Source of the DNA: Vermamoeba vermiformis
Taxonomy: Eukaryota
Direction of reading: 5' to 3'
Assembly: GCA_045837725.1 (NCBI GenBank)
Contig: JBEWZL010000056.1
Span: 1-64,000 of the forward strand
Length of the DNA stretch: 64,000 bases
The notes below the pieces were generated by a model, which did not search any database, was not told where the DNA came from, and was given only the letters and a program-made list of their open reading frames with translations. The position numbers and the translations under genes were made by a program. This document shows, one piece after another, positions 10,651 through 44,129 of this stretch; position 1 is the stretch's first letter, and each line of letters starts with the position of its first letter.

Positions 10651-13047
10651 TAAAAATCCGATTTGTTGTTTCTAAATCAGGAAACACTCTCGTCAAGTAC
10701 GAGAATGGCAAATTTGTGAAAATTAATTTCTTTTCAATGCAGCAAATTTCATAAAACTTTAGGATACGAAATTTCCATTTGCGAAAGAATTCGCGTCGAG
10801 CTGGAGAGGCGCCTGAATGACCCGTATCTTTCCCCTCGAAGTCGTCCGTCATTGCCGCAGCGAGCTTTGTAGCATTGAGATTGCCCAGTATTTTGAAAAG
10901 CTTGTCGTTGACTTCAATTTCAACCAGTCGGAGACCCAAGCCTAGCTTCTCCTGCACGATTGAAGCGCGAAAGTTGTTGCACAAAGTGCTGACGATTCCG
11001 CCAATGTGGAATAACTTGAGCTTCGTGATTATGTGAAGTTCCAATTGCGCTTGGCAGAAAACAGATAAGCCGTCCAAGCCATCTGCCAAGCTTTGTACCA
11101 ATGTGCCCTCGTCGACGAAAGCAAGGCTATGATCTGCGTTGAAGAACTTCAGGGCAGCAGAATCAGATCCTTCTTTGACACCCGGGATTTCAAGCTCCAT
11201 TGAATTGTTTACCAACTCGAATGAAGCAGCGGAGAACTCACAGTTACGAATTCCTGCGAGAATTTGGCTGGATGCTCCTGCAATAATGTTAGAATGGAGC
11301 TCTGACAAACAGAATTTTGGGTTGCGCATACCTGATTCGTGCATTATCAAAGTATCTCCAGTTGGCTTGGGCTTTAACTTGATATCAACCTTGACTCCAT
11401 CTCGTAGAGCGTATTGCTTGTTCTCAAAGGTCAGAGCGACGATTTTGACCCGATCACTGCGCGCATCCACATCAACACCAATGCCATGCACATGCAATCT
11501 CTCAAGATGCTCGCGCAAGGCAATGATGTATCGGTGGGTTCGCCTGGCAACGGAGTCGGGAGACATGTCGTGCTTGTCAAGAAATTTTTCTCGTCTTTCC
11601 AATTTTAGCAATTGTTCTAAATTTAGAAGTTAGACCGAAGAATGCAAAATTGTAACAAAATTGATGTTCCTTACCATCCATCCTTGACTTTCTTCCTGTC
11701 TTTCTTTTCTTGTGTTTTTTTTGTTTTTTCTTTGCCTTAGATCGAGTAGATTTTTTGGGGGTGTGTTCCGAACTTGAAGTTGGCGATTTCTCAATAACGA
11801 TGTCGGCTTTTCGATTCTTTTTGGGGGTGTGTTCGCTTTCTGTAAGAGTGTATTAATAAATTTTAAGCCTACTGGTTGAATTACTTACGGTTTTGGCTCT
11901 CATCTTCGTTTTCTTTACTTTCTGCACCGTCATTATGCCCTGATACACCTAATATATTAATATTAGCTCAGTGGATATTCGAATAAATGTACACAACTTA
12001 CGATCATCACTATGGGCAGATTTTGGGTCAGATTTTTCTTGATCTGAGTTTGGTTCGCGACGATGATCACCATTGCTGTTGCAATCGTCGATACCATCGC
12101 CAATGACGCTGTTCTCTTCCTCTTCGCCTTCTTCGTCCTCTTCGTCTTCGCTGTCGTCTTCTTCTTCTTCCTCCTCTTCTTGGAGGTCGTAGTCATTGTC
12201 ATCGGGAATAGGGACATCATCGGGGTCGAGGAACCTCATATCGTCAGAATCTGGCTCTTCATCCGGCTCGTGTAGATCAATCCAGTCTTGTAGCATGCCC
12301 TTGACGGACATTAAGGTTTCTTTCTCGCCCACAACCTCTTTTTCTCCGATTAGGCCGTCGGGCTCTGATGCATTCTTCTTTTGTGGGTCACTGACATCGT
12401 CGCACTCGTTGTCAGAGGCCTCACCGCTGCTAAGATCTAAAAAAAAAAATCACATCAGATATCGAAGCAAAATTTTGCTTAGGAAATTTTTAAGTACCTT
12501 TTATTTCATGTGTAGCTGCTCGCTTCGGCACGATTCTGGCTTTTTTAACTGTCTGTACGCAAGTTAGAATTTGGCGGGATGTAGTCTGCGTCGCTTACCT
12601 CACTGGCTGTGTTCGGTTCAGTAGAAACCGAAGTACCTTGAGCACCTTCTTGGCCTGAAGAGTTGGTTTCGGAATTATTCGGCGCGGATGATGTAGGTGC
12701 CTTCTTAGCGGAGGACTTAGGCTTCTTAGGCGAGGGCTTCTTGGGCGACGACTTCTTGGGCGAAGACTTCTTGGGCGAGGGCTTCTTAGGCGAGGGCTTC
12801 TTGGGCGAGGACTTCTTAGGCGAAGACTTCTTGGGCGAGGGCTTCTTAGGCGAAGGATTCTTAGGCGAGGACTTCTTAGGCGAAGACTTCTTGGGCGAGG
12901 GCTTCTTCGGTTCAAGTGTGGAACGCGTTGTGGCACGGGTGACTCGAGTCTTCGAATACAGGTCATTCATTACGGCAGCCATACAATCCAGGCTCGACTA
13001 TTCGCAAAATTAGTGCGATAAGTTTGCTCGGTAATGAGACTTACCAT
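10604..13047 (-). CDS. Orphan protein with 12 (P/S)SPKK-type repeats (histone H1-tail-like), acidic tract and ~330 aa globular exon; may be the N-terminal part of the 6422-10650 gene
   Basis: ATG|GTAAGT at 13047; ORFs 12545-12982, 11949-12332 and 10604-11611 flanked by canonical splice sites. Confidence 0.65.
12715..12908 (-). repeat. 15-bp coding tandem repeat with 60-bp higher-order period (SPKK array)
   Basis: GGCTTCTTAGGCGAG / GACTTCTTGGGCGAG units; translation [20 protein letters not shown]... Confidence 0.95.
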
Positions 13048-16477: not shown

Positions 16478-16912
16478 ACGCGGAGACGACCAGCGAGACA
16501 TTCTTATTTTGTAGATCGTCTCCACGTGGAGACGACCTGTGAGACTTTATTTTTTTTTAGGATCGTCTCCACGCGGAGACGACCTGTAGGACATCGTAGT
16601 TTTTTTAGGATCGTCTCCACGCGGAGACAACCTGCGAGACTTTGTTTTTTTAGGATCGTCTCCACGTGGAGACGACCTGCGAGACTTCGTAGTTTTTTAG
16701 GATTGTCTCCGCGTGGAGACGACCTGCGAGACTTTGTTTTTTTAGGATCGTCTCCGCGTGGAGACGACCTGTAGGACTTTGTTTTTTAGGATCGTCTCCG
16801 CGTGGAGACGACCTGTAGGACTTTGTTTTTTTAGGATCGTCTCCACGTGGAGACGACCTGCGAGACTTTGCTTTTTTATGAGATCGTCTCCACGTGGAGA
16901 CGACCTGCAGGA
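16478..16912. repeat. Tandem array: 9 full + 1 partial ~44-48 bp units, each an 18-bp palindrome CGTCTCC(A/G)CG(T/C)GGAGACG plus a T-tract
   Basis: Units start at ~16514, 16561, 16609, 16654, 16701, 16746, 16790, 16835, 16882. Confidence 0.95.
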
Positions 16913-17257
16913 CTTAGTGTTTTTGAGCATGTCATTCGGGGCGAGACTTCTTTTTTTCCCGTGGATAATTTTCCAAAGTAAAATTTTGCTTAAGTAAAAA
17001 ATGATCGGGGTCAGAAAATTCTTTATTTTTTTGAGGGGGTGTCAGGGCTAGCCCTATATGGGCAAGCCCACTTACATATATGAATAATTGATACTGTGCG
17101 TTTGCAATACAAATATCAAAGATGATAACAACGATTGCTGGTTTTGCTTGGATTTTTTGACTGGCAAATGGTTTTGCCTACCAAAAATTCACTAGCACAT
17201 GTACCTAACTCGTCATCAAGCTCCTTGTTGATTCTTTGCACTAATCTGTAATGGGAC

Positions 17258-17600
17258 TGGATTCGATCGTGCACTAGTGCTGCAGCAGGCAGGCCTCTAT
17301 GGCCGGCCATAAAGAGAAAATAAAAAAATTGCCCACAACTGGATTCGAACCTGCTCCAGTGCTGCAGCAACTCTATGGCCGGCCATAGAGGGAAAATAAA
17401 AAAAAATTTGCCTGCAGCTGGATTCGAACCTGCGCCTTTGAGGCAAATAGCAGAACTCTATGGCCGGCCATAAAGGGAAAATAAAAAAAACTGCCTGCAC
17501 CCGGATTCGAACCTGCTCTGGTGCTTCGGCAACACTATGGCCGGCCATAAAGGTAAAATAAAAAAAGTACCCACACGCACGGGGAATTGAACCTCACTGG
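17258..17600 (-). repeat. Array 1 of tRNA-derived B-box/palindrome units (~4 units)
   Basis: Plus strand TATGGCCGGCCATA + A-tract + TGCC..CTGGATTCGAACCTG, i.e. the Pol III B box GGTTCGAATCC followed by a T-run on the minus strand. Confidence 0.9.
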
Positions 17601-17682
17601 ACCCTTGCAACGGATTTCAATAAGCTAAAGCAAATAAATTTTATATACTAGGCTGCAAACAAAAAAAGAGAACAACATCATA

Positions 17683-20600
17683 CTATTTGCCAGAGTCCAC
17701 TCTTCTCTTCTTCGGAGAATTCTGAGATCCTTCTTCCTCGTCGCCACCTTTTTTGCGCTTCTTGCTGTTGCTTGTTGAACCTTCCTCTTGGTTGTCTTCA
17801 CCACTTTTGGCATCCTCTGAAGATTCATCATCCGAAATGACGTGCTTTGCCTTTGGATCGCTCTTCTTTGCTTTCTCCTTTCCTCCACTTGTTTGACTGC
17901 CTTGGGTTCCTTTGATAGAGTCACTCTCCATTTCTTCATCACTTCCTTCCTTCTCACGAGCCGAATAGTCTTCGACAACAACCTCTTTGTCTGAATCCTC
18001 ACTTGCTGCACTGATTTCTTCAACAGAAGCTTGATTAGCTGCATCAGAAGGTTCATATTCTTGCTCCCCAGGAAATTTGATCTTGAAGCGTGTGTATAAA
18101 GTAGATGGTTTGTGATCAACAAACTGAAGGTCAGGAAGTGCAAAGACTTCGGATTCCTTTGTCTGGGCCAATCTTTCCTTTACTCTTTGCAAGCACTTAA
18201 ATGCATTAGTTTCATGCAGTTCATTTTCGAATTTGACTGCTGCAGAGAGTCTGGTGTGCGTGCTGCAAGAAAAATTAGGTGAACAGTTCTGAATTTTATA
18301 GCGTGCAAACTTACTTGATAATTGCATGAATAACATGCAAGGGGTTAACCCCCTTTAGAACACTCATTGCGTATCCATCATTTGAGGTTGAACTGACAAA
18401 AGTGCAGTAGAAGCACTTGATTGTGTCCAACGAGGAGCCAAAGCATGCTAGCATGATAAGACCGTGGCAGGTAGTGCACTCTGTGCAAGCCTCAAACTCT
18501 CCAAAATGTTCTGGGATTTCTTTGACCATAAATCTCTGGAAGCCAGGCAGAAGGATTTCTTTGATATTTTTTGAAACAGATTCCACGCTTCCAAATGAGT
18601 AGGTCCTTGTTTTAAGAAGGAACCAAAGAGAATCTTGATACGAGACTTGCCCTGCAACCCAAACAGCATAGAGAGTATGCCATTCAGCAAAGAGATATTC
18701 AATCAACATGCCACTCTTTGCAGTTTCCTCTACGGCAGATTTTGTGTCAAGCAGATGGTCAGGAATTACCCAGTAGCGGTAAGCGTAGTTAAAGGGAACA
18801 TAGAGGCTCTGTCCTGGTAGTTGCCGCACATAGATGAAAGGGTTAGCTTTTGCCTCTTCTTCATCGCTCGATAAATCCCCTGGTTAATGTTTAGTTTGGG
18901 TTCAAGGAATAGCGGGCTACATACATTTGGGAATTCTAAAAGTGAATTTCTTCTTGGAAAAACACGGGCTTAACACCCAATAAACAGATCCGCGGAAGTT
19001 GCTTCGCAAGTAAAAGAAGCGCTGACAAAGCTAAACAAAAATTAGATACGCTTGCAATGTGCAAATTACTTACTGAGTAAGGAATGTGCCAATCACTGTA
19101 GTAGTAGGCTGTTATTGCATAGCCACCAACGCAGTGTGCCCCAAATACTTCGTGCAAGCAATTTCTTTCAATTGAAATATCCTTGGGCATTGGAGCCCAG
19201 TAGTTTGCAGCATCAACGTTGGGGTTGAAGACCAATGGATTAAGGTGAACAGGATGCCGAACTGATATTGGTATTAATATCTGTGTATCTATTTCTTGAT
19301 CATCATTTTGTGTACTTACTTGAAGCCAATCCGAGACCACGTCGCACAATACTCTTTGCCAAAAGCTTCTTCTTTTTTTTCTCATTCCAGGTGAGATTTG
19401 GCGAAAGCACCATGACCATTTTATCTGCAGCCTTAAAAATCATGCTGCAGAAAGGTAAGAAAAAGCTTATGTAACCCTGTGCGAAATACTTACGAATGCT
19501 CGTGTTGGATCTGGTGCATTTGACTGCAAACTTCATTTGGTGGCTGAAACAAAGCAGGTTTTTTCACCTCATCAGCATTAGCTTGAAGCACTTTTGTTTC
19601 CCAAGTAAACTTCCATTGGGCAATTGCTTCTATTAGGCAACTATGCTCCAAAAACTTTTTCACTGGTCGTGCTGTCTTGTGGACTCTTGCGCTAAAGTCT
19701 TCACCAACATGATGAATAGTCAGAGGATACTTAAGCAACTCCACCATATCTGTGAGAGTTGAGATGCCAAAGAGCACTGTATTCTCGAACTCTTTTTCCT
19801 CGTCAAATTTGCTCACTAATTCAAAATACTTATTAAAAATTCAATCAAACATTGAGAGACCTACCAGCAGCCCTAATTGCCAACACCAACGAAATATTGT
19901 GCTGCTTGCCTTCCTGCAGGTGATGTATTGTTGCAGCCCAATGCACTGCTTCCAGCAGGAGATGCAACTCTTCTGGTTCATTTGGAGCAACCAACTTCTG
20001 AATGTTCCGAAAGCCAACACAGTAATAATCATCAATTATCATTGCAGAGTACAGTTGACGAATCTTCGCATTGTATGCAGCTTTGGGAGGAAGGATGGCT
20101 TAAATTTACTGATTAGCAAATGCTTTTAAAATAAAAAGACCTATTCTTACCAATGACTGGGCATTTGTTGGAGTCATTGTAAACCAATTTGAAGTTCGAT
20201 GGCGAAAGTTCATGAGAGTTGACAGTGATGATAACTCCACTACCCTTTTCCACCACTTTAACAGCCTCTTTGGCATTTGACAGTGAGTAGTTGGTGTAGC
20301 GCTCAACTACCCATTTCTTCACTGTTTCTTCCCAATTTGGCAACTGACTGAGGACTGCATTAAACTCTGCCTCATAGCAATAGTGCATGTCCTTCTGAAA
20401 CAGCTTCTCCTTCATGTGCACATCAAAAAACTTGGCGCATTCTTGCTTCAATGCTGTATCCCATTGGGAGATGGGCAGTTTCAATACCTTTGCACAGGCC
20501 TCGCCAAGCAGCATTGCACCACGCCAGATGATAATTTGATTCCTCCAATTTGGTTCTGGAGGCATGTCTGCAGAACTGAATTAAGAAATACTTTTGGAGA

Positions 20601-21907
20601 TGTTTCACATACCATGCATTTGCCCCTGCGATAGACGGACCTTTTTGTTAGTCCCAAGCACTTCTTTGCTCTTAGCCATCCCTGAAATTACCAGTTATTA
20701 GATAATTTTGTACAACTTTTCAGCATCCAAACAGTATACTTACACCACTGCTGGTATTTCACAGTGCTTTCAATCATTCCTTTTAGAAACATTAACTTGA
20801 CGTCGTTTGGAATTCCTTGAAGGGCAACTCCTAGCATGTTCTTCACTGTGAAGGGTTGCTTTTTACTATAGTAAAATATAACGGATTAACATGGATTCAT
20901 TTGATTAGTGGAATACTTACACATTTGAGAAGATTTTCGTCAGAGTGAAATGCGTCGTGAGGATGGAGGAAAGATCCTTGAAAGTTTCTCTAGGCAAATT
21001 TTTAAACAAAATAGTGCAATCCCCTGTTCACAAGCTGTGTTAGTGTTGCTCCTTGCATCAAAGTCAAAATTCTTACCAAGCTTGTGAACAGCAAGCAGTT
21101 GGGATGCCTCCTTGGAAAAAGCAGCCTTTTGTTCTTCTGAAGCTGTTTCATAAGTCACGTTGGCAGCTTTGGCTAGCAAGTCGCACATTTGATCAATCAA
21201 AATAACCTTGTCCATTAGGTTAAGCTCCAGAAAGTTCTCTGTGTCGTTTTTCTGCAAGTCCATGCCAACACGAAACAAATCCTGAATCAAAAGTTTAGAT
21301 CAAGCGGATCAAAACTATTTCTACTTACTGGTTCATCCTTGGGAACTAGCACTTTAACTTGAAATGCTTGCAGCAGCTCCCACAACATGAAGTAGTGCAC
21401 TACAACAGCACGGTGCTGCCCTAAAAGTTCAAAGGTTAATCAACATAAAACAAGGTTGTGATCGCATACCAATGCAAACAGCATAGCTGATTTCCCCTGT
21501 TTGCTTGTGCTGAACAGGCACAATTGTTGGTGCTCCTTGGCTAGTACTCCACGGAGTGCAGTTCACCATCAAATTTCGCACATGATCTAAGGACAGGGCA
21601 CGGATGTTGAGACTGCATCCAGAAAGTTAGTTAATACAAACAAATTGAATTAGCAACTTACGCTCGTCCTTTGACAATACTATCAGCAGCAAAGATTGGC
21701 TTTGACATTGTGACTGTTGTTGCACCGTTTTGCAAGTCCTCCTGACAAAATGCAACATTGAAGTGCGGCAACCTAAACAGATATTAATAATTAATTAAAG
21801 TTTTTCAATTTCACTTACTTGAAGCGATTAGGCCGGTTGCAACAAGGATTTGCACAGGGCTCTGTTGTTGGAGTAGTCAAAGTCGTCACCACAGAATAGT
21901 TCTCCAT
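17683..21907 (-). CDS. Multi-exon protein: ParB-like N-terminal domain, degenerate JmjC domain, Cys4 zinc finger, charged tail
   Basis: Spliced NIRALSLDHVRNL..PTIVPV..YAVCIGQHR (21612-21410); VFNPNVD..W..NCLHEVFGAH..SDWHIPYS|RFFYLRSNFRGSVYW..FIYVRQLPGQSLYVPFNYAY (19240-18780); CTTCHGLIMLAC..KCFYC (18480-18404). Central exons not fully resolved. Confidence 0.65.
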
Positions 21908-21976
21908 ATCCAGCTCAAAAGTCTGCAAAAAAAAAAAATGATTATCCGTGCATGGAATAAAATGACTATAGGTCGA

Positions 21977-22457
21977 GGCAGGACTCTATGGCCGGCCATA
22001 AAAGAAAAATTAAAAAAAAAAACTGCCCACACCTGGATTCGAACCTGCTCCAAGCACTGTAGCAGGCAGGACTCTATGGCCGGCCATAGAGGAAAAATAA
22101 AAAAAACTGCCTGGGAAAAAAACTGCCCGCACCTGGATTCGAACCTGCTCCAGTGCTTTGGAAGGTGGGCCTCTATGGCCGGCCATAAAGAAAATAAAAA
22201 AAATTGCCTGCAGCTGGATTCGAACCTGCGCCTTTGAGGCAAATAGCAGAACTCTATGGCCGGCCATAAAGAAAATAAAAAAAAACTGCCTGCACCTGGA
22301 TTCGAACCTGCTCCAAGAACTGCAGCAGCAGGACTCTATGGCCGGCCATAGAGGAAAAATAAAAAAAACTGCCCGCAGCTGGATTCGAACCACAATGACA
22401 GGTTCGAGTCCCACTGTGGCAATTGATTTTTTTTATTTTTGTTATGGCCGGCCATAA
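21977..22457 (-). repeat. Array 2 of B-box/palindrome units (5 units plus an inverted terminal half-unit)
   Basis: Palindromes at ~21988, 22075, 22174, 22255, 22338, 22443; B boxes at ~22035, 22135, 22216, 22298, 22381; opposite-strand B box at ~22401. Confidence 0.95.
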
Positions 22458-23066
22458 ATTTTGGTCTAAAAGTTGGTTCTCTGATCCGGACTTTTACGCA
22501 AGAAAGGCAAAAATTATAATTGATAGGCCATTTATCTTTATGATTAGATGTAAAATAAGTTAAAATTGCTGCATTTATTAAAAATAAATGTGCGTGATTT
22601 TTTCCGGACCAGATTTGATTTTAAAAAACCTTTTAATTTTATGCAGCAGGCAAAAATATGTTTAAAAAAATATTGCATAATATAATTAAGATATTTTAAT
22701 ATTATTTAAGCGCTTTGTTATAAAAATTACTTACATCCGTTGGTAAGTCCGGCAGCTTCTTTTGCACCAAAGTCTGTTGGTGTCGTGTTGCGGATTCTTC
22801 AGCCATGATGTGAGAGTTGTGGTTGCGAGGGTAAACAAGCTTAAAAAAAGAAAGAAATTTTTACCGTTACAAGTCGCGCAGATCAAAATTGAACAGCTGT
22901 AGAAACACAACAACACCTGCCTTTTACCCTAATTTTGGTAAGTAATATTAAATGTAAATGTTTTTTATTGATTGCTGGTGTCAGTTCACCAGCAGTTCGT
23001 TGTACATGCTTAAATCCGATCCAAAAACTAATTTTTATTTTCAAAATTCAGGACTGAGCCAAAAAT

Positions 23067-24287
23067 ATGAACTTTGCTGACAAAATAATTATGCTCTACG
23101 CAGGTGAGTATTATTATATTTTTGTTCTGTCATCTGTCTCGGTGAATCCTGACATCTGGCATTTTTCAGGCAAACCTCCAGGATATAAACCAACTGAGGA
23201 GGAGAGTATGTACTTATCTTGTTATTGACACCTGTTTTACTAATTCTACCTCCTGTAGTAAAGAGGGTGAATGCGCTTGCCCGTGCCAAGTCCAAATCAA
23301 AGAAGCAGTCTGAAGGTAATACTGTTGAAATCTTATCGTTCTTAGTCATTCTAACTGTTAATAATAGAAACTTCTTCTGAGAGTGACCTCAGTGACCGGT
23401 TTTCCCCACAAGGAGGTCCCACGAATGCTATTGATGTGGATGAGGTGCACGACACAGCTTCTATTCCCAACCCTCCAGCCTCCCCTGCGCAATCTCCTCC
23501 CCTCATTTTTACTGCAAATGTCAATAGCTCCAAATTAATTGCGGAAATGCAGAAAAAATTCACCAACTTGGAAGTTATTGACTTGCAGTAAGTACAAATA
23601 TTGTTAAATTGAATGTATGCTAATTGCTTGTTTTAGTGATCCAAATGGAATTTACCACGTACTGCAGCCATACGCTATGCAAAGCATTGTGCAAATTCCT
23701 GTAAGTATTTCTTTTAGTTTTTTAATGCAATGCAATAGACACAAGGCTAACCGCACAAATGACAGGTAATTAATTCTGCAAGGATTTCTGTTACTGTTCA
23801 AGGGCTTTATGAGTGCTTCAAGTTGTTTAAGCACAATCCAAACATCGACGTGGTTATGTTGCAAAAACATCAAGAAAAGATCGTGCGCAAAGAGCCAGCA
23901 AAAGATTTACTTGGTTGGCAATTGGTAAGTAACTTTATTTTTACTTCAAATATAAGCTTATATTTAAATTACATGACTTTACAGGGGGAAAAAAGCACAA
24001 CCTTAGTTTCTGCCGAGATTGCGCACCACCTGTTCCACATTTTGCCATACTTATGGGTGATGGAGAAATCAAAGCCAATTTGCTTGAAGTTTCTTCGTGA
24101 TTTTCTTAAGGATGGAAAAAGGCTCCTGCTACTTGACTCTGCCAACAATTTTGATATCAACGACTATTCCTCCCCTGTTTCCGTTGCGACTCTCGTTAAA
24201 TTAATTCTTGAAGATCAGGCACAAGCAATAATAGAGGATATCAAGAACACATATGACAATGTAGATCTGAGCATGTATTCTCTGTAA
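23067..24287 (+). CDS. Multi-exon orphan protein of unknown function
   Basis: Consistent in-frame path MNFADKIIMLYA|GKPPGYKPTEEE|IKRVNALARAKSKSKKQSE|ETSSESD..|..|..GEKSTTLVSAEIAHHLF..SMYSL* with canonical introns. Confidence 0.65.
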
Positions 24288-24514
24288 ATAAATGAAGTTC
24301 ATGCAAATTTCTTTTTGTTGGATCAGGCCTTTTTGGAACCTGTGGCAGTGCACAGGATAGAATAGAATATGATACAATAGAATATACATGAAGGGATAGC
24401 AATATTTGGCATTAACATGGTGAGAGTTTGAGAATTTGGAAGAGGCGGGATCTGCTCAGCAGAAATGTTAAGTTCAAGTTGCAAGAAGACAACCAAACAG
24501 CAAATTTCGAATAT

Positions 24515-24830
24515 TATGGCTGGTCATAAAGATAGACATTATGCCATGATAAACTTGCAATTGAACCCAGGACTTTGGCAGGAGTCAATTTATGGCTGGC
24601 CATAAAGTAAAAATAAGATATTTGCCCACACCTGGAATTGAACCTGCGCCAGTGTTGCAGCAACTCTATGGCCGGCCATAGAGGGAAAATAAAAAACTGC
24701 CCACACTTGGATTTGAACCTGCGCCTGGATTCAAACCACGATGACAGGTTCGAGTCCCACTGTGGCCATACATTTTTTTTATTTCTGTTATGGCTGGCCA
24801 TAGACAAACAACGAAATTGCCCACACCATG
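24515..24830. repeat. Array 3 of B-box/palindrome units, eroded
   Basis: Variants TATGGCTGGTCATA, TATGGCTGGCCATA, GGAATTGAACC, GGATTTGAACC, GGATTCAAACC; same inverted hub as at 22381-22457. Confidence 0.85.
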
Positions 24831-25108
24831 CTTCTCAGGCCTAATTTGTCACCACACCATTTACAAGCTTCATTTTAATGCAGCTTTTATTAGATGAAAA
24901 TCAAACCAACTACACTAAGGCAATATTAAACACTTTGCCTGCAACGCAGTCAATGCATCACTTGCGTAAGCCACAAAGCCATCTGCAAAAATCCATCAGC
25001 CCAATCACAGTATGTAAGTACTGTCAGAGCTCGCTTTGACACGGAATTCAAATTGGTCACTCCAGAACTACCCCAGTGCATCTGTGCCATGGTTGCAAAG
25101 TTAACCCC

Positions 25109-25356
25109 CTTGTTGACCAAGTTTGACCAGACCCCGTCCGCGCCACGGGGACGCCCCCTTGTTGACCAAGTTTGACCAGACCCCCGTCCGTGCCACGGGG
25201 ACGCCTCCTTGTTGACCAAGTTTGACCAGACCCCCGTCCGCGCCACGGGGACGCCTCCTTGTTGACCAAGTTTGACCAGACCCCGTCCGCGCCACGGGGA
25301 CGCCTCCTTGTTGACCAAGTTTGACCAGACCCCCGTCCGCGCCGCGGGGACGCCCC
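25109..25356. repeat. Five near-identical 49-50 bp tandem units with a GC hairpin
   Basis: CTTGTTGACCAAGTTTGACCAGACCCC(C)GTCCGCGCCACGGGGACGCC(T/C)C x5; CCCCGT/ACGGGG stem. Confidence 0.97.
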
Positions 25357-27987: not shown

Positions 27988-30887
27988 TTAATCGTCAACA
28001 TCGCTACCATCATCGTCGTCATCACCTTCTGATGCCTCGCGGAGCCATGTCAAAAACTTCTCTGATTGTTTGTAGAAACGTTGATCGGCCTCATCTGCTC
28101 CCTTCATTTCGTCGGCCCACTGCAAAATAGAGTCTTCGTCTAATACTTCAGCATCAAATAGAGTATCCAAGATCAATTCAAAAGCTTTTGCTAATTTCTC
28201 GTTTCCTGCTTCTTCGCACAGATCTTGAATCTTGAAGATCAACTCGGTCTGATCTTCGGTGCTATCAATAAACTTGAGCAATAGAGGTGCCCACTTCTTG
28301 AGGATCTTGACCAACGATGAGTTGTAATTCTTCTGGTCCACCAACTTGACCAAAGTGGAGAAGATCGCAGTCAACGTATCCAAGAACGAGCTGTTGTAAG
28401 CGAACTTGAGGCCGTTAATTTCCAGCACTACGTTGTCGATCGAGTGGTTTTCCGCGACAGCACGTTCAACTGTTTCTTGCATTTCGTCGTTGAATCGTTG
28501 CAGATCTGACACGTACTCCACTGACTTGCCTCCACCAGCCTGCAAAACAGATTAGTTCAAGTTGATAAGAATCATAATCGCTAGTACCTTGAGCCGCTTG
28601 CTTTGAGTGCGCTTCAAGTTGGACCTTCGTTCAGCCTCATCACCCGAATCTTCCGCGCTCTTGTCATCGGCAGCATCACCGCTGTCAGCACTGTCTTGGT
28701 TGAAGTTGAAATCACCGTCGTCATCGCTAGGCTCGTAGCTGCCGTCCTCTTCCAGTTCTTCAGAGGAGATCGACGACTCGTCGGTTTCTTCTTGATCTTG
28801 CACGTCATTGTCTTCGTCGACTTGAGTAACGCGCTTGGTTGTAATGAATAGCTTGGTGACATCTTCTGAGAGCACGAGATCGGTGAATCTGAAACGAAAT
28901 TAGTTATTTTACTGTCAGAAACGAGTAAATCATGTCGACGTACCTCAGGGATTGAGTGAGATCAGCAGCGGGGTCGCGAGGAGTGTAGCTCTTCAACAAC
29001 AATTCACGTTCAACTTCGCACCACTTGTTGCCCTTGCCATCCTTGCCGAGGTTAATAGCCACAACGCGAGGAGGTTGTTGAGCAGCAGGGCTGACAGGCT
29101 TGCTGGTCAGCTTAGTGTACGGAGGCAAGCGCACGCCTTCACCAACAACGCAGTTGTATGCGAGCAAGCAGCCCTTCTCGATAACAGCTCCTTTCTTAAC
29201 GCAGCTGTTGGAGCAAATCAACGAATCGCTAATCTTCACATTGTCTTCAATTACTACATTGTCCCACAGGTAGCAGCCTTCAAGACGCACGTTTGCACCA
29301 ATCTTGCAGTTTTTGCCGATGACTGAATGCGAAATAAACGTGTTGTCACCAATGTCTGTGTTATTGCCAACAACAACGTCTTCTTCGAGAGTGGAAGACC
29401 GTGACAAGTTGACGTTGTTTTCTTTGTAGATCGAAGGTCTGCTCAATGAGTAGCTCGTGGAACCGCCCAACAACAGGTTGTTGTCGGGAACTAACGGGTA
29501 CGTCCATCGTGAAATAATGTCTCGTGAAATCAAGTTGTATGATCGCAAGCAGTTAGCGCGAGCAGCATAGTACTGGTTGGTAATAATGTGCGTGAAAATC
29601 TTGGCGTTGAAAATCTCTTGTTGCACGACACCTTGAATGAACTGCTCGAGTGTTAAGTAGTCAAAGTTGTCTTGGAACTGGAACAACACTTCAGTGCTGC
29701 AAATAGCAATGCGAGTGTCGACCAAGTCATTGCGGAACTGAATTCCCTCTGCAAAGTTAAGTGAGTATGTTAAATAGGCCTGGACGTGGCGGCCATCGTA
29801 TAAATTGGCCTTCGCAATTATAAGAACTTACTGGGGTGATCAGCAAACAATTGCAAGTCAATGGTGGCCTTCTTATCGACAGCCTTGTGTTCATAATAGA
29901 CCAGCTGACCAGACTCGGGGTTGATGGCAATGCACGTATCATCAGGATGAGTAACTAATTGACCGACTTTCATGGGCACGGGCTTGCTTGAGATTTCATA
30001 GCTCTCTTCGTCATTCGAATCAGCATCTTGATCCTCGTCGTCGTCTTCTGTTGCAACAGTAGCTGCGGCGTCGGTGTTGAATCGCTTGAGCACGCGACCA
30101 ATCTTGGCAGAAGCAGCACCTCGACGGTTTTGCTTGAACAAGAGTGTCATAATGGCCTCCTTGTCCTTCTCCTTGCGTGCCTGGTGAGCAGCTAACAAAG
30201 CACGAATGTTGACGTTGCTGACGACGTCGGAAGTGACCAAAATGAAGTCTGAGCGCAATAATTGATTCTCGTACATTTCACGCATGCACGCGCCAATATT
30301 GTTAGCTTGGCGAGTGACGCACTTCACTGACATGTGTTGTTTGGACCAGTTGCTTTGGCTGCACGCATGCATTAATATAGAGATGTAAATTGACAGATCG
30401 TCTCGACTTACTCGATATATTTTTGGATCTGATCAGAATGGGACGAGCAAAATACAAACACTTCCTCTACACCACCACTGGCAAGAAATTCGAGCGTATA
30501 CTCGATCATTGGCACGTTGACCAACGGAAATAAGGCCTGATCAAATAAAATATTTTAATACTCTGACAGATTATCGTAAGATTAGCACCAAAATTTGAAA
30601 ATAATTATATTGTCAATAATTTAATTAGATTGGGCGGTAAGAAGCAATTATTACGTTGCACAAAGGACGAATCTGATTTTTTTTCCAAAACACGAACAAT
30701 TGGCAACACAAAGGCATGGAATATTATTTTAAAAATGAATAAATAACTAAATATATTTTGCAGATTAAATACATACTCTTGGAGCATCCAGTGAGATCGG
30801 ACGATAAAATTCATCAAAGCTATCAGCAATGACCAACGCTTGAATCTTCTGCGTTGCTTTAATTGACTCCTTAGTTTTCTTGGCCAT
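27988..30887 (-). CDS. EIF2B5: Translation initiation factor eIF2B epsilon subunit
   Basis: QALVIADSF..RPISLDAPR nucleotidyltransferase-like domain, hexapeptide beta-helix, SRDIISRWTYPLVPD, C-terminal W2 domain (LEINGLKFAYN; FLTWLREA). Confidence 0.95.
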
Positions 30888-42549: not shown

Positions 42550-42961
42550 TCCTGCTGATAACAATAAATAAATATAGACCTTCGATGTGGCTTCTAGGTC
42601 CTTGACGTATCGAATGTTCGAGAAATTGACAAGGTTGGTTTTCAAGAAAGAGCGGGACTGACGACTTGACATGTGGATTTTTTGAAAATAATTAATCTCA
42701 ATTTTACCACATCTTACAGCACTACAGAAATCATATTCTTGCTTGCTTACTATGATCTGTAAAAGGATGGATGTGACTGAAAAGTCTACGTTACGCTTGT
42801 TCGTCATTACGGTCGTTCCAATTATGCATGATAGGGCCATATCAATTTAGGAATAATTTCGACGAAATTACAATAAGTTGAGAAAAGGCGTCAGACCACG
42901 TTGGTTCAAAAGTGTCTCTCGTCTAAATTCATTTATTTTTTCTTTTACAGCGAGTCACACC

Positions 42962-44129
42962 ATGTCATTAGCAGACCAGCTCGCGCAACGCAAAGCGCGA
43001 TTGTCCAAGACAGAGACCATGGTCCGCGATGAGAATGGACAAATATACCGCGAGATCATCACAGACACTGGCGAAATAAAGAAAGAGGCAATCTCGAAGG
43101 AAATATTGAACCGTTTCGATCCTAATGCTAGTGCTGTATTACTTCCAATGTTTTATGACCGCCATGAGCACAATTGGGTCAATGCACACGCTAACAAGAC
43201 AGATCGACCAGCAACAAAGACTCAAAAATTATCTTTTATCACCTACAATGTATGGTTCGATGAAAGGCACCAAAAAGAACGCGCAGAAGCATTATTCAAA
43301 ATTATAGAAAAATACGAACCAGATTTCGTTTGTCTCCAAGAGTGTACAAAGATTTTCTTGGATATTCTAAAAGAACAAAAGTGGGCACAAAAGCATTATC
43401 ATGTGTCTGATGCAGAAGGAGTTACCATTATTCCGTATGGAACCTTGATCCTCTCGAAGCATGGATTTTCCCAGCTCAAGATCCATTCGCTGCCCAGCAA
43501 TCAAGGAAGGAGATTTTTAGTGGCAGAAGTTAATATACGCGTAGGAGATAATGCTACGGAAACAGTTAGAGTCTCAACGGTGCATCTGGAAAGTCTTTTA
43601 AACCAAGGTAGATTTGCAGCGCTTCCTTTTGGATGCTTGACGACTAACGAGTTAATAGACTATAGGATAGAACAACTCAAGCAAATATTTACAATTCTCG
43701 AAGAGGGCAAGCATAATTTCTTTATGGGCGATATGAACTTTGGTGACAACAAGATGGTGAACAAAGAACACGACTCAATACCCAGTACATACACGGATTC
43801 ATGGATAGAACTATCAGGACGCGAGCCCAAGCTAAAAATGGAGTATAAAGAAGGCTGGACAATTGCAGGTTTGTTTCTCGTTTATTCGGGGTTGAAATCT
43901 CCCGAATGTGAGATTTAAATTGTACTGTACTCTCGGACTAATTTATATTATAATTATAGGACAGCGATATGATCGGTTATTTTATCGATCGCCATTGTTC
44001 AAAACGTCCAAATTTAAAATTATTGGCAGAGATCCTATTCTTGTCGTCAACAAAGAAGAGATCTTTCCGTCGGATCATTTTGGTTTATATGTAGAATTAG
44101 AGGCAGAGCATTCGTTTAGGATAGTCTAA
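42962..44129 (+). CDS. Endonuclease/exonuclease/phosphatase protein, TDP2-like
   Basis: TYNVWF, DFVCLQE, TVHLES, MGDMNF, RYDR, PSDHFG. Confidence 0.88.

Follow-up and report, generated by a model that had tools for sequence, protein, structure and literature searches.

What do the short units that flank and separate two divergent genes in this 64-kb stretch of DNA (hereafter the window) represent: genes for small RNAs, binding sites for TFIIIC at gene borders, or the traces of a spreading repeat? The units are marked by a palindrome, TATGGCCGGCCATA. When up to 2 mismatches were allowed, all 14 of its matches in the window fell within three arrays (confined to 17298-17549, 21987-22456 and 24515-24802), against a chance expectation of 0.11 and with 0 of 100 shuffles reaching 14. 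The B box (GGTTCRANNCC) has the same distribution, with 13 of 13 window matches inside the arrays compared with 0.85 expected; 11 of these lie on the minus strand and 2 on the plus strand (22401 and 24747), and 8 are exact copies of GGTTCGAATCC. These counts bear out the three same-strand arrays of palindrome/B-box units described in the first-pass annotation. Repeat periods of 77-99 bp were reported by Tandem Repeats Finder, and the units themselves (76-99 bp) share one order: a perfect palindrome comes first, then roughly 20 bases of diverged sequence, GCAGGTTCGAATCC, the acceptor-like TGYRGGCA and finally a T-run. The palindrome reaches 20 nt (CTCTATGGCCGGCCATAGAG) in several units. The T-run (7-11 nt) starts 12-13 nt past the B box in all eight exact-B-box units, which belong to arrays 1 and 2, and the proposed unit layout, with B box, acceptor-like stretch and T-run at the spacing of a tRNA gene, is supported. 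A run of six T remains in unit 3a of array 3, and the T-run is lost in units 3b and 3c.

Array 1 (17230..17610, minus strand) is separated by 75-100 bp from the gene A stop codon, on the 3' side. It opens, in minus-strand reading, with a degenerate unit (1a, 17550-17610) whose B box is GGTTCAATTCC, continues through three canonical units (1b, 17473-17549; 1c, 17388-17472; 1d, 17312-17387), and ends in a decayed unit without a terminator (1e, 17230-17311). Array 2 (21950..22456, minus strand) contains an inverted foldback module (2a, 22351-22456), four canonical units (2b, 22269-22350; 2c, 22188-22268; 2d, 22089-22187; 2e, 22001-22088) and a truncated last unit (2f) whose palindrome occupies 21987-22000. 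Array 3 (24515..24840, minus strand) lies about 230 bp 3' of the gene B stop, antisense to gene B, and consists of an inverted module (3a, 24681-24802), unit 3b (24605-24680) and two decayed units, 3c and 3d. A remnant acceptor-like stretch is present upstream of 24803. Arrays 2 and 3 are both opened by an inverted foldback module. In array 2 this module (22372..22456) carries a plus-strand B box (GGTTCGAGTCC), an acceptor-like stretch, a T-run and a palindrome, its plus-strand parts facing the first minus-strand B box of the array, and when folded it forms a long hairpin (-34.3 kcal/mol, z -4.6 versus shuffles). Its counterpart at the start of array 3 (24718..24802) is 88% identical to it. 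Other minisatellites are abundant in the left 26 kb of the window, and one array made of a palindrome and a T-run directly adjoins array 1.

Gene A (17683..22806, minus strand, stop codon at 17683-17685) is an orphan gene with several exons, about 1200 codons and GT..AG introns of about 50-60 nt; the model is approximate, and some of its exons are mis-spliced. Its start may lie in a putative exon 1 (22735-22806, minus strand) or at an ATG at 21905-21907 (minus strand). Compared with proteins of nearly its own length (104-333 aa), a 190-aa exon of gene A matched one 99%-identical sequence and nothing else. The same exon gave no Pfam match and no PDB sequence match below an E value of 0.69, and its weak JmjC/cupin lead scored 0.82, where the tool draws its line at 0.9. 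Gene B (23071..24287, plus strand) is divergent from gene A, contains introns and encodes a C-terminal DUF6939 domain (E 8.6e-10). The two cDNA runs available (paired-end Illumina RNA-Seq, sharing the species label only) placed 17 and 5 reads on the genes and arrays of the locus, of which 16 and 5 matched only partly, and these gave no joints, read starts or read ends; over genes A and B, almost every bin had zero depth. The arrays had been proposed to bracket two divergent genes. The bracketing stands, with array 1 on the 3' side of gene A and array 3 on that of gene B, but array 2 is not simply placed between the genes. It falls within a putative 812-nt intron 1 of gene A (21923-22734) or in the 5'/upstream region of that gene, between the gene A body and the divergent promoter region. 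This placement of the three arrays fits a role at gene borders. That the whole two-gene block is itself a mobile element was considered and rejected, as Pfam scans covering 36 open frames of the window turned up neither a transposase nor a recombinase.

The stretch between palindrome and B box had been taken for a free variable segment within a constant scaffold. That reading did not survive alignment: the middle segments align across units as diverged homologous sequence rich in CTG/CAG, and some of them are common to different arrays. For the same reasons, homology and sharing between arrays, an interpretation as CRISPR-like spacers was rejected. Unit identities between arrays (94% for 1c and 2c, 86% for 1d and 3b, 77% for 2a and 3a) compare with 57-88% for neighbouring canonical units within one array. 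Together with the aligned and shared middle segments, this pattern of sequence identity indicates block copying of a single ancestral array, with at least five already diverged units and an inverted foldback head, to three sites within 7.6 kb. The hairpin variant GCCTCAAAGGC, previously noted as identical in arrays 1 and 2, does occur in both, and the units that carry it are 94% identical.

Conservation is distributed very unevenly along the unit. Among the seven canonical units of arrays 1 and 2, neither the palindrome nor GCAGGTTCGAATCC varies (100% identity), compared with 47% identity in the middle segment, and two invariant runs of 15 and 14 positions were reproduced in 0 of 100000 column shuffles. 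Throughout arrays 1 and 2, no substitution was found in 10 palindromes, nor in 8 of 9 B-box blocks, in units whose identity is otherwise 60-88%. This difference argues for constraint on the palindrome and the B box in these two arrays, and a B box and palindrome far better conserved than the middle segment are as expected for binding sites. Array 3 shows partial decay, with mutations in palindromes and B boxes mainly at CpG, so any such constraint does not act on every array. The conservation could also stem from a slippage-prone CTG/CAG-rich middle or from the repeat's own spread.

The segment formed by GCAGGTTCGAATCC, 3 nt, a 7-nt acceptor-like stretch, a purine and the T-run can be aligned with the Rfam tRNA model over its T arm and 3' acceptor, and we take the T arm of the units to resemble that of class II (Ser-type) tRNAs. 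The description of the units as tRNA-3'-half cassettes in the first-pass annotation holds for the B box, the acceptor-like stretch and the T-run, but fails at the T stem: in 8/8 exact-B-box units GCAGG/CCAGN opposes A to A at 51:63 and cannot pair, and the T stem is absent from the consensus predicted by RNAalifold. tRNA detection on the arrays also came out negative. ARAGORN found 0 tRNA genes in the 64-kb window, no Rfam family reached its gathering score, and the best unit scored 11.6 bits with the Rfam tRNA model against a threshold of 29, even with a search space of 111 bases. With a permissive threshold, Rfam returned for 8.1 kb and one unit only unrelated families at chance level (lactis-plasmid, mir-1789 and Plastid-ycf2). 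The units differ from tRNA genes, tRNA pseudogene clusters and tRNA-derived SINEs in being without a 5' acceptor, a D arm, an anticodon arm and an A box, in their mismatched T stem, in scoring below every detector threshold and in having no A-rich SINE tail on the B-box strand. They are neither tRNA genes nor joinable tRNA halves. Very probably they form a lineage-specific tandem repeat family, in which a perfect palindrome of 14-20 nt is fused to the tail of a tRNA gene, its final ~22 bases from T loop to discriminator, together with the oligo-T terminator that follows them.

The A box was looked for with motifs drawn from PMC5391098 and, in addition, with TRGCNNANNGG. Within 75 bp upstream of the B box, TRRYNNARYNG or TRGCNNANNGG occurred in 0 of 8 units, and a permissive A box, TNNNNNANNNG, was present at 30-60 bp in 1 of 8. 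Of the elements of a type 2 (tRNA-type) Pol III promoter, the B box is thus present and the A box 30-60 bp upstream is absent, which weakens the reading of the units as plain tRNA-type Pol III genes. The eight exact-B-box units do show what a Pol III unit should have at its end, namely an oligo-T just past the coding-like part, and the arrays also show the pattern of extra-TFIIIC (ETC) sites, B boxes without an A box and outside any Pol III gene.

Transcription by Pol III may nevertheless be what the units are for. In this account, which we consider unlikely, each unit is a small Pol III gene making an RNA of 50-80 nt: the B box recruits TFIIIC, the T/A-rich tract TTTTTTTTATTTT of the preceding unit, rather than an A box, acts as a TATA-like TFIIIB site, and the transcript runs from around the palindrome to the T-run, folding at its 5' end into a palindrome hairpin and after that into an imperfect hairpin that has the B box in its loop. 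The geometry of an exact B box and a T-run 12-13 nt further on, found in every one of the eight units, is that of a tRNA-gene end, and the start of the palindrome, TGGCCG, would correspond to the opening half of the A box in class II tRNAs. Folding speaks on both sides. In minimum free energy folds of nine units, the left arm from the middle segment pairs with the acceptor-like right arm in most cases, 3 of 14 pairs in the RNAalifold consensus of eight closely related units hold through changes on both sides, and the foldback module folds far beyond its shuffles. That consensus is weak (-7.62 kcal/mol), however, with an unfavourable covariation term (+0.47), and 7 of 8 ordinary units fold no better than shuffles (z -0.40 to +1.14; unit 1d, z -1.70). 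Besides the missing A box, the variable arms are shared between arrays, and the targets sought for them did not emerge: with up to 3 mismatches each segment had 0-2 matches outside the arrays in the window, no more than shuffled queries. A further account, split tRNA genes of the Nanoarchaeum type, would make the units 3' halves whose palindromic leaders pair with 5' halves encoded at other loci. The 3'-half-like layout, the GC-rich self-complementary leader and the one unit type with a hairpin at the place of a long variable arm would suit it. We rejected it as exceedingly improbable on the strength of the unpairable T stem, a palindrome-to-T-arm distance that is not fixed (19-26 nt), the lack of any palindrome outside the arrays in 64 kb that could serve a 5' half, and the 11.6-bit tRNA score; moreover, the acceptor-like ends of the units are only 1-3 bases apart, so different tRNAs would not be specified.

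In the other account that has to be weighed, the arrays would be copies of a selfish or neutral composite repeat of about 450-500 bp with internal tandem units, foldback- or MITE-like, each unit lying between the inverted arms GGCCATAGAG and CTCTATGGCC. Local duplication or transposition would have spread this repeat, unequal exchange would enlarge it, and its B box would be a mere fossil of a tRNA gene. We regard this as somewhat improbable. Speaking for it are the three block copies with their common unit order and common foldback end module, the decay of array 3, the slippage-prone CTG/CAG-rich middle and the minisatellite-rich left 26 kb with the palindrome and T-run array next to array 1. 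In addition, metagenome contigs from two runs that match part of array 2 continue into unrelated sequence at 22268 and 22280, and units therefore also adjoin other sequence in those genomes. What neutral decay does not predict is the invariance of palindromes and B boxes, unless these are needed for the propagation of the element. Nor is there a transposase or recombinase among the scanned open frames, the sole domain of a mobile-element type in the 36 frames being a LINE-type endonuclease domain 18 kb away (42857-43918). The viral and metagenome collections yielded no copies either: the palindrome plus B-box pattern had 0 matches in metagenome_contigs and in viral_contigs, and the pattern of B box, acceptor and T-run had 0 matches in metagenome_contigs.

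Overall, we tentatively favour, at a probability of roughly 0.4, the reading of the solo-B-box arrays as a boundary or organising element of the extra-TFIIIC type at gene borders, any Pol III transcription there being weak at most. Chromatin boundaries and genome organisers made of TFIIIC sites without Pol III are known chiefly from yeasts and animals, and to our knowledge the sequence grammar of such sites beyond the B box is poorly defined. Each unit would be a solo B box acting as a high-affinity TFIIIC site without an A box, the poly(dA:dT) tract beside it would disfavour nucleosomes, and the palindrome would probably be bound by a dimeric factor. A row of four to six of these units would then keep an open, TFIIIC-occupied stretch at the ends of, and between, genes A and B, and this open stretch would act as the boundary or organising element. 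Some observations count against the boundary reading, which is drawn from one locus. The T-run at 12-13 nt looks like a Pol III terminator and would be superfluous for a pure TFIIIC site, array 2 would be intronic, an odd site for a boundary, if exon 1 of gene A is real, and array 3 is decaying. A more specific version sees in the arrays modular gene-by-gene insulators of a free-living protist, derived from a tRNA-gene tail and made of regular tandem solo B boxes, each with a perfect palindrome for a second, dimeric factor and a poly(dA:dT) tract; this we think improbable. Its bolder variant makes the units Pol III hairpin-RNA genes whose diverged stem arms define a family of small guide-like RNAs.

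A full-text literature search found no description of tandem palindrome plus B-box units, and several known systems share part of the arrangement. In S. pombe, PMC7474672 describes the IR-L and IR-R boundaries as having five B boxes each, bound by TFIIIC without Pol III. The arrays here are similar in that a small gene domain has, on either side, four to six closely spaced B boxes. They differ in being direct rather than inverted, 350-500 bp long and composed of regular tandem units, in that every unit adds to its B box a perfect palindrome together with an acceptor-like stretch and a T-run, and in having a third array between the two genes; the S. pombe IR elements are inverted repeats of 2.1 kb. 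[quoted passage not shown] Like the ETC sites or solo B boxes of yeasts and the Dictyostelium loci, the units have a B-box consensus outside any tRNA gene. Unlike the ETC sites, which are single, they are tandem; unlike the targeted Dictyostelium loci, they are without an A box at 30-60 bp; and their palindrome is absent from both. The tRNA-linked hairpin RNA genes of murine gammaherpesvirus 68, which have a complete tRNA-like cloverleaf, A and B boxes and demonstrated transcripts, resemble the arrays as clustered short units of Pol III type that combine a B box and hairpins with a T-run terminator, whereas the units here are without the cloverleaf and the A box.

What the arrays mean depends on which of these readings holds. 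If they are a decaying selfish repeat, they are merely a new repeat family. What sets them apart is the regularity of B-box arrays at each end of two genes together with two further strictly conserved parts, the palindrome and the T-tract, of which the palindrome points to a candidate binding factor. If the insulator reading were true, they would amount to a TFIIIC boundary system outside fungi and animals that is dedicated and encoded in repeats, and this compact protist locus would offer a testable model of how TFIIIC elements are built, and evolve, from tRNA genes.

Three minus-strand arrays, at 17230-17610 (array 1), 21950-22456 (array 2) and 24515-24840 (array 3), consist of a tandem repeat derived from the tail of a tRNA and duplicated in blocks, and each of their units combines a solo B box, a T-run and a perfect palindrome. 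The palindrome TATGGCCGGCCATA has 14 matches in the 64 kb (up to 2 mismatches; 0.11 expected by chance), all of them inside the clusters 17298-17549, 21987-22456 and 24515-24802. Likewise, all 13 matches to the B-box consensus GGTTCRANNCC in the window (0.85 expected by chance) fall within the three arrays, eight of them being exact copies of GGTTCGAATCC on the minus strand. The array periods given by Tandem Repeats Finder are 77-99 bp. On the minus strand, a canonical unit reads (CTC)TATGGCCGGCCATA(GAG), 16-23 diverged bases, GCAGGTTCGAATCC and then 3 bases, TGYRGGCA with a purine, and T7-11 followed by ATTTTYYCTY. Since the repeat signals are confined to the arrays and the unit layout can be read out in this way, the first-pass annotation described the unit correctly (palindrome, variable segment, B box, TGYRGGCA and T-run on the minus strand).

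The B box and the palindrome are conserved far above the remainder of the unit. Arrays 1 and 2 have seven canonical units, whose pairwise identity is 100% for the palindrome and for GCAGGTTCGAATCC, 82% for the acceptor-like part and 47% for the middle segment; the two invariant runs (15 and 14 columns) were matched in 0 of 100000 column shuffles. This column conservation is the strongest argument that palindrome and B box would be of importance, whether for the host or for the repeat, with the caveats that the middle segment is slippage-prone and that array 3 is decaying. In array 3, changes that chiefly turn CG into CA or TG affect three of the four palindromes and the B boxes, and one T-run has disappeared; every CpG is kept in arrays 1 and 2. 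The CG changes of array 3 (24515-24802) fall within the palindrome's CCGG and the B box's TCGA, a pattern that would be expected from deamination of methylated cytosine.

One of the two proposed readings made the middle segments the variable part of a constant scaffold, a view that is not supported, because they are homologous and the same variants occur in different arrays. They are alignable (consensus ...TnCTGCnTGCTGCAGCACTGGA) and have diverged by substitutions and indels in a CTG/CAG-rich stretch. Units 1c and 2c (named by array and position) are 94% identical and share the hairpin GCCTCAAAGGC, which bears out the reported identity of this variant in arrays 1 and 2; for units 1d and 3b the identity is 86%, for end modules 2a and 3a it is 77%, and for adjacent canonical units within one array it is 57-88%. 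Read on the minus strand, arrays 2 and 3 have in common an 85-nt inverted start module (88%), in which plus-strand B box, acceptor-like stretch, T-run and palindrome face the first minus-strand B box. Because variants recur between arrays and the inverted start module is common to two of them, what was copied, as a block, was one array whose units had diverged beforehand. It is also evident from the inverted module that the building block that is conserved begins with the B box, continues through the T-run and ends with the palindrome, while the diverged stretch joins one block to the next. Independently acquired spacers are rejected on the same homology and recurrence of variants, and the targets proposed for the middle segments did not appear, as no matches elsewhere in the window exceeded those of shuffled queries.

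The units are not tRNA genes. The suggested tRNA detection gave no ARAGORN gene and no Rfam family at threshold in the window, and the Rfam tRNA model scored 11.6 bits against a threshold of 29 on one unit searched alone, nearly all of it from the T loop and 3' acceptor side. Their T stem, GCAGG/CCAGN, contains an A:A clash in all eight units with an exact B box. As for an A box, neither the stringent Dictyostelium form TRRYNNARYNG (PMC5391098) nor the general form TRGCNNANNGG was found within 75 bp upstream (0/8 units), and a permissive motif (PMC5391098) at 30-60 bp occurred in one unit of eight only. Split-tRNA halves are rejected on the same structural grounds, and no palindrome copy outside the arrays in the 64 kb could belong to a 5' half. 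Folds of single units contain the palindrome hairpin and, in most cases, a second imperfect hairpin that pairs the left arm with the acceptor-like right arm and holds the B-box sequence in its loop. Seven of eight ordinary units show no folding advantage over shuffles (z -0.40 to +1.14), the eighth, 1d, has z -1.70, and the foldback module alone stands out (z -4.6). The alignment fold is weak (-7.62 kcal/mol, covariation term +0.47), with pairing kept through double changes in 3 of 14 pairs.

The arrays flank two divergent genes in a eukaryotic window whose genes contain many GT..AG introns of ~50-60 nt. Gene A (minus strand, 17683-22806) is an orphan of ~1200 codons with an acidic, Ser/Lys-rich tail ending in KKRR; its stop codon (17683-17685) lies 75-100 bp before array 1. 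When the 190-aa exon of gene A was compared with proteins of near length, a single sequence, 99% identical, was returned, and a language-model search gave a weak JmjC/cupin lead (0.82, under the reliability line). A JmjC protein acts together with TFIIIC sites at fission yeast boundaries (PMC4502379, in excerpt), a coincidence with this weak lead. Gene B (plus strand, ~23071-24287) encodes a DUF6939 domain (E 8.6e-10), whose family belongs predominantly to phages and bacteria; tailed phages and bacteria also supply most of the nearest feature-clusters of the gene, one of which co-occurs with NADAR-DarT1. Given these relatives and its spliceosomal-type introns, gene B may have been transferred into this eukaryote long ago. 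Array 3 starts ~230 bp past the gene B stop codon and is antisense to it, and array 2 lies between the gene A body and the divergent promoter region. If the putative exon at 22735-22806 (72 nt, open, consensus GTAAGT donor, with a strong acceptor at 21923) is real, array 2 would sit in an 812-nt first intron of gene A, whose other modelled introns are all <100 nt; alternatively, the ATG at 21905-21907 is the start of gene A, which would place array 2 upstream.

The left 26 kb of the window (1-26000) holds orphan genes or open frames and many minisatellites (e.g., 358-489, 1020-1481 and 12720-12907). The right 38 kb (26000-64000) holds ordinary housekeeping genes (eIF2B-epsilon, MFS transporter, acyl-CoA dehydrogenase, ferric reductase/NOX-type, GH77 and ELMO), almost no arrays and only one LINE-type endonuclease fragment (42857-43918); for the housekeeping protein at 28904-29827 the best named relative is from Dictyostelium purpureum (44% identity). 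Directly adjoining array 1, a 45-bp minisatellite of ~10 copies (16478-16924) combines a near-perfect 24-nt palindrome, GGATCGTCTCCACGTGGAGACGACC, centred on CACGTG, with ~12 nt and a plus-strand T-run. It shares the palindrome and T-run grammar of the tRNA-like units, lacks the B box and is oriented oppositely, so that the two arrays converge. Just beyond array 3, a 50-bp tandem repeat (25108-25356; 5 copies, 96% matches) contains a GC-rich hairpin, CCCCGT...ACGGGG. The two-gene block therefore has a tRNA-like array and an unrelated minisatellite on each side.

In two RNA-Seq runs that carry the same species label, 17 and 5 reads matched 8.1 kb, almost all of them over part of their length and within or close to array 2, and none formed splice joints or pile-ups, numbers that bear neither on small RNAs nor on silence of genes A and B relative to their neighbours. 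In contigs from aquifer and water metagenome runs (two studies), most of the locus is covered at ~99% identity. These contigs keep the same unit number across array 3, break at arrays 1 and 2, and run into unrelated sequence past 22268 and 22280; thus the units also stand beside other sequence in those genomes.

We tentatively favour TFIIIC docking without productive Pol III transcription (probability about 0.4). On this reading, the arrays would form open stretches at gene borders with factors bound to them, and the strict T-run fits either a poly(dA:dT) tract that excludes nucleosomes or a true terminator. The closest parallel is with the S. pombe IR boundaries and their clusters of five B boxes (PMC7474672), and solo-B-box ETC sites (PMC5391098) are a further precedent. 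Almost as probable as TFIIIC docking is a composite repeat, selfish or neutral, given that copying went by blocks, that array 3 is decaying, that units also stand beside other sequence and that other minisatellites of palindrome and T-run abound next door. That the units are Pol III small-RNA genes is somewhat less likely again, and this reading stays alive because the T-run also fits a terminator.

A full-text literature search of limited reach found no description of tandem palindrome and B-box units. Known here from one locus, the element falls within known kinds, namely tRNA-derived repeats and extra-TFIIIC sites, and what is unusual in it is the regular three-part grammar and the gene-flanking layout.
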